Source: Methanothermobacter sp.
GTDB taxonomy: Archaea; Methanobacteriota; Methanobacteria; Methanobacteriales; Methanothermobacteraceae
Assembly (NCBI RefSeq): GCF_030055435.1
Contig: NZ_JASFYG010000002.1
Span: forward strand, 51,224-83,223
Direction of reading: 5' to 3'
Length of the DNA: 32,000 nt
Below the pieces are notes generated by a model. The model did no database searches. It was not told the origin of the DNA and saw only the letters and a program-made list of their open reading frames with translations. The position numbers and the translations under genes are program-made. Below are positions 5,371-28,809 of the stretch, piece by piece (positions within the stretch are counted from its first letter, which is position 1; each line of letters begins with the position of its first letter).

Positions 5371-6846
5371 TCACCCCATCATTTTCTTCATGTCCTCTTC
5401 AGGGTCACCTATTGGTGTGAGTTCATAGTTATCAACGAGCACATTTATGATGTCGTCGTTGGCCCATCCAGGCAGTATGGGACCTATGTACATGCCCCTG
5501 AGGTTGAGTGATAGGAGGCTCCAGAGTATTGCAGCGGCCTTCTGCTCCATCCAGCTGAGGACTATGCTGAGGGGCAGCTCATTCACATCCAGATTGAAGA
5601 GGTTGCTCAGTGCCTCCACAAGTTCCACTGCCACTATGGAGTCGTTGCACTGGCCAAGGTCTATTAGCCTGGGGATCCCCTCAATGTCACCCAGATCCAT
5701 TGAGTTGAAACGGTACTTGCCGCAGGCCAGTGTGAGGACCACGGTATCCTGGGGGAGCTTCCTCACAAATTCGGTGTAGTACTTTGCCTGTGGCAGGGGT
5801 GAATCACACCCACCAACAAGGAAGAATCTCCTGATTTTACCCTCCTCCACCAGCTCCTTTATTTTATCTGCAAGTGAGAGGATTGTTGAGAGTCCGAAAC
5901 CTGTTGTTAGTGTCGTTGCCTCCTCCTCTTTAAGGGGTGGAAGTTCCAGTGCCTTCTCTATCACTGGACTGAAGTCGTAGCCATCCACATGTTCAACCCC
6001 CGGGAGCCGGGCAACGCCACAGGTGAACATTCTATCCCTGTAGCTGTCATGGGGTATCAGAACACAGTTTGAGGTCCCAAGTACTGCGGCGCTGTAGCGT
6101 GAGAAGGTCTCCCTCTGGTCGAACCAGGGGCCGCCGAGCTGCCCGGCAAGGTGCGGGTACTTCCTGAGGCCAGGGTAACCATGGGCTGGGAGCAGCTCCG
6201 AGTGTGTATACACATTCACACCAGTATCCTCGGTCTGCTTGAGCAGCTCTTCAAGCGCCTTCAGACTGTGACCTGTTGCTATTATGGCGGGGCCATCAAG
6301 GGCCCCCACCCTCACCTCTGTGGGGTCAGGTTCCCCGTAGGTGTCAATGTGGGCCTTTTTGAGGAGCTTCATGGTCCTCAGGTTCATCTCACCAGCCTCA
6401 AGGGCGAGGCTTACGAATTCCTCTGCATCGAAGTTCACGTTGGTGAGTGTTGAGTAGAATCCCCTCTCAAGGAAGGCATCCACAACTTCATCGGTGTATC
6501 CGAGTTCACGGGCATGGTAGAGGTAGGCCGAGATACCCTTAATTGCAAATAGAAGGTTGTCCTGGAGTCTTGCAACGGTTGCTTCCTTTCCACAGACCCC
6601 CTTTACTGTGCAGGCCCTTCCACGGACGGTCTGGGAGCACTGGTAGCAGAACATGTCTATGTCCTCTGGCCTCACGCGCCTCACCTCACCCTTCAGGGGC
6701 TCGAACTGGTCCTTACCCACATTGCATACCGGGCAGACCCAGTCCTCTGGAAGTTCCTGGAAGGGGGTTCCAGGTTTTATACCTGATGTGGGGTCACCCA
6801 CGTCAGGGTCGTATATGTAGTCACATACCTTGCAGCGGTACTTCAT
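5371..6846 (-). CDS. hcp: Rubredoxin-domain / hybrid-cluster protein (Hcp, hydroxylamine reductase family) fusion
   Basis: Track ORF 5371..6897. The N-terminus [14 protein letters not shown]...[13 protein letters not shown] is a rubredoxin CxxC...CPxC domain. After a linker comes [23 protein letters not shown], the Hcp N-terminal cysteine cluster, and the remainder has a prismane/CODH-like fold. Start is ATG 6846 or ATG 6858 (MVIEM). Confidence 0.8.
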
Positions 6847-7836: not shown

Positions 7837-9654
7837 ATGAGGATACTGTTAATTCACTCTGATTACCTGGAATACGAGACAAAGAACAAAACAGGGATAG
7901 CGGAGGAAATACCTGAAGATAAAATGAAGGGACACTTCACTGAGTCCCTTGTGGTCTTCACAGCGGTGGAGGCTGAGGATGAGGAGAATCCGGATTCAGT
8001 CATTGAAAATGCGGTAAATGAGATAGTGAGAGTTTTTGGCGACGTTAAGGCTGATAATGTTGTTATATATCCATACGCGCACCTCAGCTCTTCACTGAGC
8101 TCTCCGAAGACAGCCCGCAGGGTTCTTGAGGGAATGGAGGAGGCACTGAGGGAAAGGGGACTTGAGGTCTCAAGGGTCCCCTTCGGCTGGTACAAGGCAT
8201 TCAGAATATCCTGCAAGGGTCACCCCCTATCGGAGCTCTCAAGGACCATAAGGCCGGAACCCCTCAAAGAGGAGGAGGAATCAGAGGAATCAGAGTGGTT
8301 CATACTATACAAGGGCCAGAAAATCAGACCAGAGGAATTTGAGTTCACAAGCAGGGACCTTGAAAACCTTGTGAAGTATGAACTGGGTGTGCTCGAATCA
8401 TCCGGAGAGGAGCCACCACACGTTAGACTCATGAGGGAGAAGGGCCTGGCGGATTATGAGCCATCAGCCGATGTGGGACACCTCCGATGGTACCCCAGGG
8501 GAAGGCTGATAAGGGATCTTCTTGCAGACTACGTTTACATGCTCGTAACCAGTGAGGGGGCGATGCCGGTTGAGACCCCCATAATGTATGACCTTGAGGA
8601 CGAGGCCATCAGGGTCCATGCAGAGAAGTTCGGTGAAAGGCAGTACAGGATGAAGAACAAGAAGGAACTCATGCTGCGATATGCATGCTGCTTTGGGGCC
8701 TTCAGGATACTCTCAGATTCCTTCCTCACATGGAAGAATCTCCCCGCCTCAATATATGAACTCTCCACCTACAGCTTCAGGCTTGAGAAGAAGGGTGAGG
8801 TGGTTGGCCTCAAAAGGCTCAGGGGCTTTACAATGCCCGACCTTCACACTGTATGCGCCGACCTTGAACAGGCCCTCACCGAGTTTGCAGGGCAGGTGGA
8901 GATGTGCATGAAGACCGGTGAGGACCTCCAGGTGAACTATGAGGTGATATTCAGGGCTACCAGGGATTTCTATGAGGAGTACTCTGACTGGGTGCACTCA
9001 GTGGCCGATAAGATAGGAAAACCAATACTACTTGAACTTCTACCCTCAAGAAAGCACTACTGGATTGCCAAGATGGACTTCGCAGCCATAGATTACCTTG
9101 GAAGGCCAATAGAGAACCCAACAGTGCAGATAGATGTTGAGAGTGGGGAAAGGTTTGGCATAACCTATGTTAACAGTGATGAGGAGGAGGTGAACCCCAT
9201 AATCCTCCACTGCAGCCCAACAGGGAGCATAGAGAGGGTTATCTGCAGTTTACTTGAAAAGACAGCCATTGAAATGGATGAGAAACCACCCATGCTACCT
9301 GTCTGGCTTTCACCGACACAGGTAAGGGTGCTTCCAATTTCCGAGCGCCACCTCGAATTTGCAGAGTCCCTTGTATCAGAGATGACTGCAAATGATGTGA
9401 GGGCGGACCTTGACGACAGGGCAGAGACCCTTGGTAAGAAGATAAGGAACGCTGCACAGGACTGGGTACCCTACGTTGTGGTTGTGGGTGACAGCGAACT
9501 GGAGGGCAAACTCACAGTTAACATCAGGAGCACAGGTGAAAAGGTTCAGATGGATCTCCATGAGCTCATCGAACTCGTCAGATCAGAGACCCAGGGGATG
9601 CCATTCAGAAGGCTACCCCTCCCTGTCAGACTTTCAGAGAGAATCAACTTCTAA
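7837..9654 (+). CDS. thrS: Threonyl-tRNA synthetase, archaeal type with N-terminal editing domain
   Basis: 605-aa ORF. The N-terminus [19 protein letters not shown] is the archaeal ThrRS editing-domain start, followed by a class II catalytic core and a C-terminal anticodon-binding region. AGGTGA ribosome-binding site upstream. Confidence 0.9.
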
Positions 9655-9659
9655 AAAAA

Positions 9660-9665
9660 TTTTTT
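9660..9665 (+). terminator. Oligo-T tract immediately after the thrS stop
   Basis: taAAAAAAATTTTTTga. The T6 run starts 6 nt after stop 9654. Confidence 0.35.
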
Positions 9666-9674
9666 GACCCATCT

Positions 9675-9698
9675 TCTTATAAGTTATAACTTATAAGA
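9675..9698. promoter_or_regulatory. Perfect 24-bp palindrome TCTTATAAGTTATAACTTATAAGA, candidate centromere/operator upstream of parA
   Basis: I checked the reverse complement by hand and it equals the forward sequence. Further TTATAAGTT / CTAAATT / CTAAGTT iterons follow to about 9727. The element lies 65 nt upstream of ATG 9763 and overlaps the AT-rich stretch where a TATA box would sit. Confidence 0.6.
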
Positions 9699-9762
9699 TA
9701 TAATTTATAAGTTCTAAATTCTAAGTTCCAAGTGATCATCCTAATCAGTTGATGGTGATTAA

Positions 9763-10530
9763 ATGGGAGAGATAATTTCAATCATAAACCAGAAGGGTGG
9801 CTGTGGCAAGACAACAACCGCGGTGAACCTCTCAGCAGCCCTTTCACTCCTTGAGAGGAGGGTGCTGGTGGTTGACATGGACCCCCAGGGTAACGCAACA
9901 ACAGGGTTCGGTGTGAATAAATCTGAACTGGACTCAACCATCTACACAGTACTCAGCAGAAAGGCATCCCTCAGGGATGTGATACTGCCAGCCGAACTCG
10001 AGGACCTTTACCTTGCACCCAGCAACATATCCCTGAGCGGTGCAGAAATCGAACTCAGCAGCGAGATAGGCTACCACGCCATCCTCAAGGAGGCCCTTGG
10101 GGACGTGAGGGATGAATTCGATTACATATTCATAGACGCCCCGCCGTCACTGGGGATACTCACACTCAACGCCCTCGTGGCATCTGACAGTGTCATAATA
10201 CCAATACAGGCAGAGTACTATGCCCTCGAGGGAATGGCCGACCTCCTCAGGACAATGAACCTTGTTGAGGAACGTCTCCAGAGTCCCTGCCCCATAAAGG
10301 GGATACTCATAACCCTCTATGACTCGAGGACACGCCTTGCAAGGGACGTGCAGAGGGAGGTTGAAAGGTTCTTTGGTGAAAGGGAGAACATCTTCAGAAC
10401 AAGGATACCGAGAAACGTACGCCTTGCAGAGGCCCCAAGTCATGGAAAACCATGCATCACCTATGACCCTGAAAGCACGGGAACGGGGGCCTACATGAAA
10501 CTCGCAGCTGAAATACTGGATATGGAGTGA
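9763..10530 (+). CDS. parA: ParA/Soj/SegA-family partition ATPase (deviant Walker A)
   Basis: 255-aa ORF. IINQKGGCGKTTTAVNLSAAL is the deviant Walker A KGGxGKT. It also has DMDPQGNAT, FIDAPPSLG, and no N-terminal HTH (small ParA type). GGTGAT ribosome-binding site upstream. Confidence 0.85.
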   Translation: MGEIISIINQKGGCGKTTTAVNLSAALSLLERRVLVVDMDPQGNATTGFGVNKSELDSTIYTVLSRKASLRDVILPAELEDLYLAPSNISLSGAEIELSSEIGYHAILKEALGDVRDEFDYIFIDAPPSLGILTLNALVASDSVIIPIQAEYYALEGMADLLRTMNLVEERLQSPCPIKGILITLYDSRTRLARDVQREVERFFGERENIFRTRIPRNVRLAEAPSHGKPCITYDPESTGTGAYMKLAAEILDME

Positions 10531-10534
10531 TATA

Positions 10535-10834
10535 ATGGCACAGAAGAAGGGCCTTGGGATGGGACTCGATGCACTCATCCAGTCAAGGACAAGGAAGGAA
10601 GTGAAGGAGACCTCTGACTCAGTGGCCGGAGATGTGCAGGTTGAGGCTGTTATAAGGGAGGTTAAACGCAACCCCCGCATAACCCTCTGGTCTGCAAGGT
10701 CTGCAGCGGTACTCCGGTACCTGAAAAAGACACAGCCAGAGTTCAGCATAAGCAGGGAGGCATCGAACCTCATAGAAAGGGCCGTGAAGGAGAAGTACCC
10801 TGAAATATGGGAAATGTTCTCTGAACTCCAGTAA
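10535..10834 (+). CDS. 99-aa partition adaptor candidate: ParB-type N-terminal peptide plus putative ribbon-helix-helix (SegB/ParG-like)
   Basis: Starts 4 nt after parA with its own GGAGTGA ribosome-binding site. The N-terminus MAQKKGLGMGLDALI matches the conserved ParB/Spo0J N-terminal GLGxGLxAL peptide. There is no ParB CTPase box or HTH. The C-terminal part RITLWSA-SAAVLRYLKK-ISREASNLIERAVKEKY has a strand-helix-helix pattern, which is my inference. Confidence 0.6.
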   Translation: MAQKKGLGMGLDALIQSRTRKEVKETSDSVAGDVQVEAVIREVKRNPRITLWSARSAAVLRYLKKTQPEFSISREASNLIERAVKEKYPEIWEMFSELQ

Positions 10835-10835
10835 T

Positions 10836-11960
10836 TCAATCGCTCTTATTCCAGCTGCTGAGGGTTGTCTGGGATCCATCAAGGTATATGAAGGGTTCAG
10901 CCCTGCCCAGCCTCACCCCCATTCCCTTCAGGATATCCGGGGTGAGGTTAACCTTAGCCCTCAGTTCAATTATTTTTCTGGCCGACCTTGGTCCTATTCC
11001 AGGAACCCTGATGAGTTCATGATAGGGGGCGGTCTTGAGGTCCACCGGGAAGATATCCATCTCCATGGCTGCGGCGTACTTTGGATCCACAGAGGTGTCC
11101 AGGTAGCCCCCACTGAACCTCAACTCATCAACACCGAAATCATAGGACTTCAGGAGCGCGTCTGTCTGGTAAAGTCTGAAGACACGCCTGGGGTCTGCTT
11201 CGGCCCTTTTCTCAAGTGCAGTCCCTTCAATGGGCTGAAAACCACTGAAGTACACCCTCCTGAGGTAATATTTATCGTAGATCCACTTAACACGTTTAAC
11301 TATATCCTCATCTGTTTCATCAACAGCCCCAACCATCAGCTGGGTGCTCTGACCTGAGGGCGCAAGTTCAGGGTGTCTCCTCTTGAACCTGCTGATCCAC
11401 CTCATTCTCCGCAGGATGTCAACACTGTAGTCCTTGGTGGATGAAAGTTCATCAAGGCCATCCCTGGTCGCGGTCTCAAGGTTGATGCTCACACGACTTG
11501 CAAGTTCCATGGCCCTTCTTACGGTGTCCATGGATGAGCCCGGTATGATCTTGAGGTGTATGTAACCGCCATAACCCTCAAGTCTTAGGATTCTGAGTGT
11601 CTCCAGGAGCTTCTCCATGGTTTCATCAGGGTCCCTGCTCACCCCAGAGCTGAGGAAGAGTCCATCAACGTAGCGCCTCTCATAGTAGTCAAGGAATATC
11701 CCTGCAACTTCCTCCGGCTTCAGCTCAACAGGCTCTTTCTCTGCGCTGTTTATACAGTACCTGCAGTCGTTGCAGCACCTGTTGGTGAGCAGAACCTTGA
11801 AGAGGGGGACCCTGCAGCCCCTGTAACTGGTGTAGTAGATACCCGGCAGCGAAGGGTTCCGCTGGGAGGGGTCTGCACTGTAGTCGCAGAGGTCAAACTG
11901 GGCACTGTCACTCAGCACCCGGACCCTTTCAGCAAGACTCATGGTGAATAATATGTCCAT
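10836..11960 (-). CDS. Radical SAM protein with C-terminal helix-hairpin-helix (putative DNA modification/repair radical SAM family)
   Basis: 374-aa ORF. LLTNRCCNDCRYCIN is a CxxxCxxC radical SAM cluster. The C-terminus ELIRVPGIGPRSARKIIELR is an HhH motif. Alternative start ATG 11942 (MSLAERVRVL). Confidence 0.75.
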   Translation of the reverse strand: MDILFTMSLAERVRVLSDSAQFDLCDYSADPSQRNPSLPGIYYTSYRGCRVPLFKVLLTNRCCNDCRYCINSAEKEPVELKPEEVAGIFLDYYERRYVDGLFLSSGVSRDPDETMEKLLETLRILRLEGYGGYIHLKIIPGSSMDTVRRAMELASRVSINLETATRDGLDELSSTKDYSVDILRRMRWISRFKRRHPELAPSGQSTQLMVGAVDETDEDIVKRVKWIYDKYYLRRVYFSGFQPIEGTALEKRAEADPRRVFRLYQTDALLKSYDFGVDELRFSGGYLDTSVDPKYAAAMEMDIFPVDLKTAPYHELIRVPGIGPRSARKIIELRAKVNLTPDILKGMGVRLGRAEPFIYLDGSQTTLSSWNKSD

Positions 11961-12398
11961 GATTCTATAACTAATTTATCACGGGCTCGCGGGATCCGCA
12001 GTGATTCTGATGGGGAGATAAGATGAATGATTTGAAAGCATTATAATTGATTTTAAGTCATTATAATAATTTAAATTAGATTTTAGATCACCAGAAAAGT
12101 TTAAAATTTCAAAGCATCCATATAATGCTCTGATATAAACGCAGGTCCTTTTTTAAGGTTCTGGATCCTCTCAGTATGGTGCCACTGCACCCCCTTAAAT
12201 AAACCATCAGATCATTCAATTTAAAAAACGGTTTAATATGGCTTATTTTTTGAAAAAAGGAAATGGTAGTGTCAAAGTGATTTAAAGAAGAAATTAAAAC
12301 ATCACATCCATTACTTCAATTTTTAAAAAGTAATTAGAATGCTCTGATTGAAAAAAAGAGTTCTAAAACGTCTTATTTTTCAATTCTGAGGCAAAATA

Positions 12399-12406
12399 TT
12401 TATATA
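12399..12406 (+). promoter_or_regulatory. Consensus archaeal TATA box TTTATATA upstream of the small Cys-rich protein gene
   Basis: gcaaaataTTTATATAtgagg. The expected transcription start near 12430 lies upstream of the GGAGG at 12464..12468. Confidence 0.5.
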
Positions 12407-12586
12407 TGAGGTCACAGTTATATTCCCAACATCCAGAGGGAACATTAAATATCTTCCTGGATTGGAGGCGGTAAAATTAAGCGACTTTTTATTGCATCTT
12501 TATTTCTATTCTCCATAGCTGCAGCGGGCATAACCGCTTCTGAGGCGGAGGATAGAGGAACTGAAATCAGCGCAAAGCCCCTGAAG

Positions 12587-16505: not shown

Positions 16506-16723
16506 CTGATGGATATCTTCACCCTTAATTCTGCGCCGGAGCATCACTCTGGGCGATGGTTAACCCATTTTCTAATTGCTTATTTAACCTCCTTTTCGTT
16601 TGGAGCAAGAACAGTGCACGGTACATGAGCTCATGGGTTTGTGTTTCACTTCAACCATATACATTTATTAATAATAATTAATAATTTATTATGAGTACTG
16701 GTATTAAAATGGAGGTTTTTGAT

Positions 16724-28703: not shown

Positions 28704-28727
28704 CCCTTCTTCTAACTTTTAAGTTAT
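28704..28727. repeat. Second copy of the parA-upstream palindrome core (exact 18-mer TAAGTTATAACTTATAAG) with a flanking AACTT/AAGTT half-site
   Basis: aacttttAAGTTATAACTTATAAGtc. The 18-mer at 28710..28727 is identical to 9680..9697. It lies in the intergenic region between the DUF63 gene and leuA. Confidence 0.6.
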
Positions 28728-28809
28728 AACTTATAAGTCTGCTGTGTAAAAGCTTTTAATTGTGGCAGCATATAGATCATGATAAAAGGCCAGACCACGG
28801 GGAATTTAA

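Follow-up and report, generated by a model that had tools for sequence, protein, structure and literature searches.

The type Ib partition system of plasmid pSM19035 includes an RHH protein, omega, which binds as a dimer to 7-bp heptads. The heptads follow each other without spacers as direct or inverted repeats, and upstream of the gene for the ParA protein, delta, 7-10 of them form arrays that are both the centromere and the operator of this system. Omega wraps the straight DNA as a left-handed helix. As for archaea, to our knowledge chromosome segregation is understood only in the Sulfolobales, in which the system consists of SegA, SegB, and the site named segS. The in vivo site of S. solfataricus (Sso) SegB is TCTAGA-S-TCTAGA and occurs, among other places, immediately 5' of segA (PMC12284271), and segS of S. 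acidocaldarius (Saci) has the structure [AGNGTNN]x3 and is located at -25 to -6 of segA (PMC12139799). Kabli et al. reported that a euryarchaeon searched with the Sulfolobus motif had no site close to segAB that was convincing, and that a different motif is to be expected (PMC12284271). M. thermautotrophicus was named among the carriers of segAB in an earlier review (PMC5120986).

The window, which is the whole 32-kb stretch of Methanothermobacter DNA that was analysed, includes a locus with the organization of the SegAB-segS systems: the gene for a ParA-type ATPase is followed by that for a small RHH protein, SegB. The locus is preceded by an array with the same 7-bp period as the Sso and Saci sites (Table 1). 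The element is ordinary in kind, i.e. repeats of the type used by RHH centromere-binding proteins in front of a parA-type gene. The array is apparently undescribed for Methanobacteriales; a full-text literature search for the heptad strings returned no archaeal paper. Like segS of S. solfataricus, it has two copies of a self-complementary hexamer on either side of a G/C center (TTATAA-S-TTATAA). Further chromosomal sites exist in Sulfolobales, and a second array, which may be such a site, is found elsewhere in the window. On the other hand, the unit is TTATAA-S instead of the Sso TCTAGA-S, and the arrays are longer: the one described here reaches 8 contiguous units, and there are relatives in which the boxes number dozens. 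In Methanobacteriales they are often found downstream of segB as well. Since three intact heptads put TAA in all six reading frames, the arrays cannot lie inside genes, whereas about 83% of the SegB sites of Sulfolobus are intragenic (PMC12284271). A search of the window for the Sulfolobus consensus TCTAGASTCTAGA (core AGA-S-TCT) that allowed up to 2 mismatches found nothing. Because the Sso and Saci consensus sequences differ from each other, the Sulfolobales consensus is species-specific and does not define the family. The G/C-ambiguous spacer is what a two-fold-symmetric dimer centered on one base pair would be expected to tolerate.

The system of pSM19035 differs from the one described here in that its heptad, WATCACW, is unrelated and in that it is plasmid-borne and bacterial; we know of no detectable sequence homology between omega and the 99-amino acid SegB protein of the window. 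The ParF/ParG-parH system of TP228, also of type Ib, has a small ParA protein, an RHH protein with a flexible ATPase-stimulating N-terminal tail, and short repeated boxes upstream of the operon that are both centromere and operator, but the boxes are tetramers separated by AT-rich spacers, the system belongs to a plasmid, and the tail includes an arginine finger (PMC8682754). The locus in the window has the type Ib combination of a 255-amino acid ATPase devoid of an N-terminal HTH and an RHH protein with a probably flexible N-terminal tail, the RHH fold being assigned through SegB homology, but instead of being on a plasmid it is found in a chromosomal housekeeping context (thrS, ilvD, mtd, hisB, leuA) with synteny kept across genera. 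Bacterial ParABS (Soj/Spo0J-parS) systems resemble it in the Soj-like ATPase, in an N-terminal peptide that is also present in canonical ParB proteins, and in the clustering of sites near the par operon. They differ in that the 99-amino acid protein has no ParB_N, HTH or CTPase domain in Pfam or NCBIfam. A search of the window with the parS 16-mer TGTTTCACGTGAAACA gave one match with 3 mismatches, at 16642, which is at chance level (12/100 shuffles).

Repeats and promoter features upstream of segA

A previous examination of the letters of this DNA, from here on the sequence-only reading, had called attention to a perfect 24-bp palindrome and to AAGTT/AACTT iterons immediately upstream of parA (segA). 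The palindrome, TCTTATAAGTTATAACTTATAAGA, is indeed identical to its reverse complement and is the longest perfect palindrome in the 32-kb window. In 300 dinucleotide-preserving shuffles of the window the longest palindrome per shuffle measured 12-22 bp and a length of 24 bp was reached in none (0/300), in agreement with the claim that it is unlikely by chance. The smaller units TTATAAGTT (9705-9713), CTAAATT (9714-9720) and CTAAGTT (9721-9727) were correctly located, as was the placement of the whole between the oligo-T run at the end of thrS (9654) and the segA ribosome-binding site (9754-9759). What needed revision is the description of the repeat. The iterons are real but are better described as TTATAA-S heptads, of which AAGTT/AACTT is another register, and the palindrome is part of an array of eight heptads and is not conserved in relatives.

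Table 1. Features of the segAB locus and of the second array; coordinates are those of the window.
Feature	Coordinates	Strand	Basis or remarks
thrS, archaeal threonyl-tRNA synthetase; upstream neighbor outside the system	7837..9654	+	Pfam tRNA-Thr_ED, tRNA-synt_2b, HGTP_anticodon
A6T6 palindrome AAAAAATTTTTT, 12 bp, with oligo-T run (A7T6) at the thrS stop	9654..9665	+	sequence
Perfect palindrome TCTTATAAGTTATAACTTATAAGA	9675..9698	.	three TTATAA hexamers plus alternating C/G spacers
Array of eight contiguous heptads TTATAA+S, predicted SegB-binding segS-like centromere/operator	9677..9732	.	TRF, in-phase scoring, conserved position
Candidate TATA box TTTATAAG of the segAB promoter, inside heptads 4-5	9704..9711	+	inferred
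segA ribosome-binding site GGTGAT	9754..9759	+	sequence
segA/parA, 255-aa deviant Walker A ParA/Soj ATPase	9763..10530	+	Pfam AAA_31 7.6e-64, CbiA
segB, 99-aa centromere-binding protein homologue: N-terminal LGxGLDALI, variable linker, C-terminal RHH	10535..10834	+	PDB matches, alignment
SegB N-terminal tail peptide MAQKKGLGMGLDALIQSRTR			candidate ATPase-stimulating segment
Four-heptad array TTCTAAC TTTTAAG TTATAAC TTATAAG, predicted auxiliary SegB site	28710..28737	.	between DUF63 membrane-protein gene and leuA

[quoted passage not shown] Tandem Repeats Finder reported a period of 7, 7.3 copies and the consensus TTATAAG. When the window was scored for three in-phase TTATAAS units (maximum 21/21) only two loci were above background, with 21/21 and 20/21, the maximum among 300 shuffles being 17/21; the other promoters in the window have no such array. 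The long palindrome results from the self-complementarity of the hexamer TTATAA together with spacers that happen to alternate C-G-C-G. In the relatives compared the heptads are retained and the palindrome is not. The 24-bp palindrome is therefore incidental, and the presumed functional unit is the 7-bp TTATAA-S repeat.

The A6T6 palindrome at the thrS stop codon is likely an archaeal oligo-T terminator. The candidate TATA box TTTATAAG lies 52-59 nt before the segA ATG, and a presumed leuA promoter in the same window, AAAAGCTTTTAAT, has a similar spacing (about 55 nt before the ATG). An archaeal TATA box is located about 26 nt before the transcription start, which together with a short 5' UTR would fit the distance found for TTTATAAG; a literature search for transcription-start data for Methanothermobacter found none. 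The gene downstream of segB is convergent and encodes a radical-SAM/HhH protein that resembles TIGR03916 (putative DNA modification/repair radical SAM protein), and on the upstream side a TrmB-like gene is found at 2 kb. The rest of the window is housekeeping in nature and includes ilvD, a cobyrinic acid a,c-diamide synthase-like gene, mtd, hisB, a ModE-like regulator gene and leuA. The nearest relatives of the encoded proteins are without exception from Methanothermobacter. No Cdc6/Orc1 gene was found within the 32-kb window; in M. thermautotrophicus strain Delta H cdc6-1 is presumably about 45 genes away from thrS.

The second array, which the sequence-only reading did not mention, has in common with the array upstream of segA the exact 18-mer TAAGTTATAACTTATAAG, the two copies being 19 kb apart. 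Six heptads are found at its place in M. thermautotrophicus (L164, 3834-3875), where the upstream flank could not be aligned, and no counterpart was found in relatives more distant than M. thermautotrophicus. The possibility of a mobile element (MITE) was rejected, as the two arrays of the window have only the heptads in common and their flanks differ.

The SegA and SegB proteins

The segA-segB pairing recurs in every relative examined. A search of the segA product against the PDB gave Soj-type ParA proteins with E values of 2e-72 to 1e-60 and S. solfataricus SegA (7DUT) with 6e-19. By these matches the similarity of the ATPase to bacterial Soj far exceeds that to SegA of S. solfataricus, which sets it apart from the SegAB system of that species.

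The 99-amino acid protein had been regarded by the sequence-only reading as a candidate centromere-binding protein, and the comparisons lead to the same assignment. In a phmmer search against the PDB its sole matches were the S. solfataricus SegB structures 7DUV and 7DV2 (E=5e-8, residues 38-94), and a profile of 31 family members matched 7DUV with E=5.7e-15 over nearly the full length of SegB. The SegB signature, published as K/R-D/N-P-K/R-I-G/T-V/L-W-S by authors who had already listed Methanobacteriales homologues (PMC12139799), reads R-N-P-R-I-T-L-W-S at residues 45-53 of this protein. On this evidence the protein is a homologue of Sulfolobus SegB and a member of the RHH centromere-binding family, with no family match in Pfam or NCBIfam. 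The 313 sequences collected for the family of this protein are from Methanobacteriales only, except for one from a MAG labelled Methanomicrobiales (P0056). A linker of variable sequence separates the two modules conserved in the family, which are the LGxGLDALI peptide at the N-terminus and the RHH domain at the C-terminus. An AF2 model of the monomer (pLDDT 70) has the helix order of the SegB topology and a low-confidence or disordered N-terminus. Foldseek ranked SegB first with this model, with a non-significant E value (1.6), as is expected for an obligate dimer, whose RHH strand is not formed when a single chain is modelled.

In the crystal of Sso SegB with DNA the residues in contact with bases are K52, W56 and K75, the first of which is an Arg in euryarchaea (PMC8682754). 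The three residues align to R48, W52 and S71 of the 99-amino acid protein. Two of the three base-reading residues are thus replaced and the scaffold is kept, which is consistent with the same binding mode with a changed specificity. The comparison suggests a re-tuning of SegB specificity (K52R, K75S) in which the 7-bp binding geometry was kept.

The N-terminal tail differs from that of Sulfolobus SegB in having the full ParB-type LG(R/K/M)GLDALI motif. Residues L7, G8, G10, L11, A13, L14 and I15 are invariant in the 31 family members. As a single sequence the N-terminal 35 residues had no match in the PDB, and a profile of the motif had as best match residues 6-15 of T. thermophilus Spo0J, with weak significance (E=0.12). 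A metagenome scan with LG[RMK]GLDALI recovered in addition canonical ParB proteins with ParB_N, HTH_ParB and ParB_C domains, which start with MAxxxGLG[RK]GLDALIP and are encoded next to Soj-like genes (L155-L162). The second half of the motif can be aligned with S. solfataricus SegB (LDFLLKKK), the first 21 residues of which are needed for stimulation of SegA (PMC8682754). This alignment and this requirement lend support by homology to the tail as an ATPase activator, and we infer such a role for the tail of the protein described here.

Distribution of the heptad arrays

A set of segAB loci was collected by way of the SegB protein or by metagenome sample, the motif not being used for selection, and an array was called when a three-heptad match of at least 18/21 was found within 200 bp. 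The sequence-only reading had named absence of the motif upstream of parA orthologues as the outcome that would speak against it. The array was instead found at 200 bp or less upstream of segA in 15/17 loci, for each of which 0/200 shuffles reached 18/21 or more. The two exceptions are a contig with a score of 17/21 and Methanothermus fervidus, which has a SegB orthologue with 61% identity and no array within 4 kb. Arrays were also found at 200 bp or less downstream of segB in 12 of 30 regions. The loci of a further Methanothermobacter species, of M. tenebrarum and of Methanobacterium also have the array directly upstream of segA, with different neighboring genes and a different remainder of the spacer; the Methanobacterium locus includes a second array 3' of segB, between convergent genes. 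The consensus from 302 heptads is T (.92), T (.93), A (.85), T (.84), A (.91), A (.92), followed by C (.56) or G (.28), and the commonest box size is three heptads (21 bp, two helical turns). The long palindrome is not conserved because the pattern of G/C spacers varies between species, and the array itself is conserved.

The exact 18-mer TAAGTTATAACTTATAAG was scanned in 185,579 species genomes, and the counts that follow are from the 120 matches listed. About 79 of these are from Methanobacteriaceae (Methanothermobacter, Methanobacterium, Methanobrevibacter and Methanosphaera), a number that includes three contigs binned under wrong names, and about 30 are immediate neighbors of segAB. Judged from these matches, the 18-mer is strongly over-represented in Methanobacteriaceae. 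The matches listed include five long records (0.48-2.7 Mb), in which 6/6 exact copies are at 20 kb or less from segAB and 5/6 are adjacent to it; pairs of 18-mers 6-20 kb apart on the same contig were also seen among these matches. Again among the matches listed, 74 copies could be classified, with 28 between convergent, 34 between tandem and 11 between divergent genes. No promoter is expected between convergent genes, and the recurrence of the motif at such places and downstream of segB speaks more for a role like that of a centromere than for one confined to the promoter. The heptad phase, the G/C spacer and the exact 18-mer are kept in genomes that go from about 50% to about 30% GC, and the range of the motif matches that of this SegB subfamily in the genomes compared.

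Conserved sites in relatives that are presumably auxiliary are located 6-20 kb from segAB at places that depend on the lineage. In many Methanobrevibacter the site is in the convergent spacer between an AP-endonuclease-fold gene and a HAD gene, in Methanobacterium in the spacer between an aminotransferase-IV (ilvE-like) gene and BacA, and in the Methanobacteriaceae MAG L030 in the spacer between hisB and a ModE-like gene, a site with no counterpart in the window. A possible hijacking of the motif by viruses was also considered and no sign of it was seen: the seven 18-mer matches on viral contigs are isolated, with 0 inside a heptad array and 0 accompanied by segAB.

Proposed role of the arrays and alternatives

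The sequence-only reading, with type Ib loci and the SegB sites upstream of segA as its models, had taken the repeats for an operator or centromere to which the small par-cassette protein would bind, and the comparative data (the SegB homology, the arrays in 15/17 loci, and the downstream and convergent sites) speak for it. We consider it probable, at about 0.7, that the heptad array is both a centromere of the segS type and the operator of segAB in a Methanobacteriales SegAB system. Binding by SegB, which is encoded 0.8 kb downstream of the array, is predicted from the significance of the repeat, its conservation, its tight linkage to segAB and the homology of both proteins; the stoichiometry, the repression, the stimulation of the ATPase and the role in segregation described next are likewise put forward on sequence comparison. 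Each 7-bp unit, taken as TTATAA with its G/C spacer or as TAA-S-TTA centered on the G:C pair, would bind one RHH dimer of SegB, so that on heptad DNA such as TTATAAGTTATAAC the binding register could be hexamer-centered or S-centered. The eight contiguous units would be coated cooperatively to form a helical nucleoprotein filament, as in the lattice of the SegB-S1 crystal, and the filament would display many flexible N-terminal LGxGLDALI tails. These could engage and stimulate the Soj-like SegA ATPase on the nucleoid, with the result that the chromosome region would be moved apart after replication. Autoregulation of segAB is predicted because the array overlaps the place of the BRE/TATA elements, including the TATA-like TTTATAAG: occupancy of -86 to -31 by SegB would shut off transcription. 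The second array would act as an auxiliary loading or bridging site.

An unlikely competitor of SegB as the ligand is a different sequence-specific protein whose sites co-localise with segAB, e.g. a nucleoid protein, a member of the TrmB family of regulators or another RHH cell-cycle regulator similar in type to aCcr1/CdrS. The Sulfolobus segAB promoter is also under the control of the RHH regulator aCcr1 (PMC12284271), M. fervidus keeps SegB with no adjacent array, arrays are also found upstream of leuA and in the hisB-modE and ilvE-like/bacA spacers, and the window has the TrmB-like gene 2 kb upstream. That gene, however, has no counterpart in the loci of M. tenebrarum and Methanobacterium, and across Methanothermobacter, Methanobacterium and Methanobrevibacter the only consistent neighbor of the arrays is segAB, whereas others such as thrS and an M24 peptidase gene change. 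The 7-bp architecture of hexamer plus S is that of known SegB sites, and the coincidence of the motif with this SegB subfamily also argues against another ligand. It is less probable still that the array is just an AT-rich archaeal core promoter made of tandem TATA-like boxes for TBP/TFB. TTATAA resembles the archaeal TATA box, so that the protein actually bound might be TBP or some other factor, TTTATAAG is TATA-like and at the expected distance from the ATG, and the array occupies the sole possible place of the segAB promoter; but arrays between convergent genes and 3' of segB need no promoter, the other promoters of the window have no array, and the preservation of 18-mer, phase and spacer from about 50% to 30% GC goes beyond normal promoter conservation.

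Two further explanations both seem very improbable. A neutral heptanucleotide microsatellite generated by replication slippage would agree with the plain TTATAAG tandem repeats found in unrelated bacteria (Poribacteria, Arcticibacter, Niallia and Flavobacterium) and with the variable copy number, which is four heptads in the second array and six in its M. thermautotrophicus counterpart. Slippage does not account for the strong linkage of the arrays to one operon or for a position relative to segA that is kept across genera where the flanking intergenic sequence cannot be aligned, and the units diverge in a patterned way that is not that of a pure microsatellite. The least probable of all is an RNA or DNA hairpin, such as a thrS terminator or a 5'-UTR structure, even though a 13-bp stem can be drawn and the palindrome follows thrS. 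The oligo-T run precedes the stem instead of following it, and relatives conserve the heptads and not the palindrome. Methanothermobacter is a thermophile, a fact that bears on the stability of a hairpin at growth temperature, and the predicted fold is weak already at 37 C (-10.4 kcal/mol, z = -1.46, 19/200 shuffles folding as well). On this weak fold and the absence of any Rfam match the RNA hairpin or terminator was rejected.

The reading of the array as a segS-type centromere and operator has practical consequences. With its exact coordinates and defined consensus it leads to simple predictions that EMSA, ChIP-seq or promoter assays could address in Methanothermobacter, a methanogen of industrial relevance which is now genetically tractable. 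The array is also a concrete, family-wide candidate for the different euryarchaeal motif predicted by the 2025 ChIP-seq study (PMC12284271).

A broader proposal, which is tentative and may well prove wrong as a whole, is that these elements make up a chromosomal centromere region, the first in a euryarchaeon, and that a chimeric adaptor reads it, with SegB competing with TBP. The adaptor would combine the RHH DNA-binding domain of SegB with a Soj-activating peptide of the bacterial ParB type and would drive a Soj ATPase of the bacterial type. As the unit is similar to a TATA box, SegB would compete with TBP and in this way could couple assembly of the segregation complex to promoter shut-off. 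If this is true, its conservation in the rod-shaped, diploid Methanothermobacter would argue against the proposal that SegB functions in spherical cells only (PMC12139799). The primary array of the region would be the one at the segAB promoter. Auxiliary arrays that vary with the lineage would be added within about 20 kb, and in some gut methanogens these would have grown into iteron fields of >16 boxes. In one lineage about 16 three-heptad boxes, arranged as a 52-bp tandem repeat, fill the 1.1-kb spacer between segB and the radical-SAM gene.

The SegA ATPase and the N-terminal peptide of SegB

In PDB comparisons the ATPase encoded by segA, as the gene is named in the literature, matches bacterial Soj (1WCV, 1e-60; 8RAY, 2e-72) much more closely than the SegA of S. 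solfataricus (7DUT, 6e-19). A bacterial-type Soj paired with an archaeal SegB may make up the Methanobacteriales cassette.

The LGxGLDALI peptide found at the N-terminus of the 99-aa SegB homologue is invariant across the family, and canonical bacterial-type ParB proteins adjoining Soj-like genes (loci L155-L162) have it as their own N-terminus. As a consequence of this identity, the SegB tail looks like a ParB-type ParA-activating peptide.

The segA gene is split into two ORFs (114 and 143 aa) in a Logan assembly (L001, 3232-4004), while it is intact in an ENA assembly of the same species (L002, 3231-4004). The split reflects a frameshift, or else the Logan sequence was assembled wrongly at this point.

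The second heptad array and the surroundings of segB

Features of the segAB region and of the leuA side, in window positions
Feature	Position	Strand	Remarks
segA ATPase	9763-10530		
SegB N-terminal peptide	10535-10582		LGxGLDALI, residues 1-16
Radical-SAM + HhH gene	10836-11960	-	TIGR03916-like, below cutoff; TIGR03916 is named 'putative DNA modification/repair radical SAM protein'
AT-rich spacer	11961-12586		Unusually long, ~39% GC; between radical-SAM gene and 126-aa Cys-rich ORF
20-bp tandem repeat	12023-12062		Inside AT-rich spacer
AATGCTCTGAT, two copies	12125-12135 and 12340-12350		Inside AT-rich spacer
Second heptad array	28710-28737		Four heptads; between DUF63 membrane-protein gene and leuA

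A second array of the 7-bp TTATAA+S heptads precedes leuA and has an exact 18-mer in common with the array upstream of segA. It is followed, after ~10 bp, by a conserved GTGTAAAAGCTTTTAAT whose appearance suggests the leuA promoter. M. thermautotrophicus retains six heptads at the same place (L164, 3834-3875), and no leuA-side array is present in the M. tenebrarum-like and Methanobacterium loci.

The radical-SAM/HhH gene is the convergent neighbor of segB in nearly all of the Methanobacteriaceae loci examined, and in many of them a heptad array is located between the two genes. The AT-rich spacer on the other side of this gene also includes several dispersed repeats of 12-28 nt; comparison of the spacer with Rfam gave no significant match.

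Heptad arrays and SegB among the relatives

The metagenome contig Ga0256406_1000110 includes an expanded repeat field (L146, 4110-11132), in which ~16 three-heptad boxes with a 52-bp tandem unit take up the 1.1 kb that separate segB from the radical-SAM gene, and more heptad clusters are found 1-6 kb upstream of segA. A large array similar to this field is located upstream of segA in L144 (1899-2269). Methanobrevibacter RUG012 (L117) has another multi-box arrangement, with three copies of the 18-mer at an exact 34-bp spacing within a divergent spacer (1594-1679) and a fourth copy 5 kb from the other three, at 6611.

Methanothermus fervidus (L005/L006) is the one clear exception to the linkage of segAB with an array. 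A SegB orthologue is present (61% identity), but 14 nt separate the preceding gene from the segA start, and a search within 4 kb found no heptad array.

Methanothermobacter and Methanobacterium form rod-shaped cells. PMC5120986 describes this shape for M. thermautotrophicus. Both genera have kept segB together with strongly conserved arrays, despite a 2025 preprint in which the presence of segB was tied to spherical cell shape (PMC12139799).

Heptads under other taxon names

Three contigs deposited as 'Bacilli bacterium' (L010), 'Clostridia bacterium' (L085), and 'Thermococci archaeon' (L110) include Methanobacteriaceae-type segA, segB, radical-SAM or leuA genes as well as heptad arrays, and appear to have been mis-binned in public MAGs. 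L010 has the same tblastn coordinates and the same flanks around the 18-mer as the Methanobrevibacter locus L100.

Among the matches listed, plain TTATAAG tandem repeats were also found in unrelated bacteria, namely Poribacteria (L037, L055, L099), Arcticibacter (L060), Niallia (L039, L046), and Flavobacterium (L077). These repeats, which have no segAB nearby, are probably ordinary microsatellites. It is curious that their unit is identical to the Methanobacteriaceae heptad.
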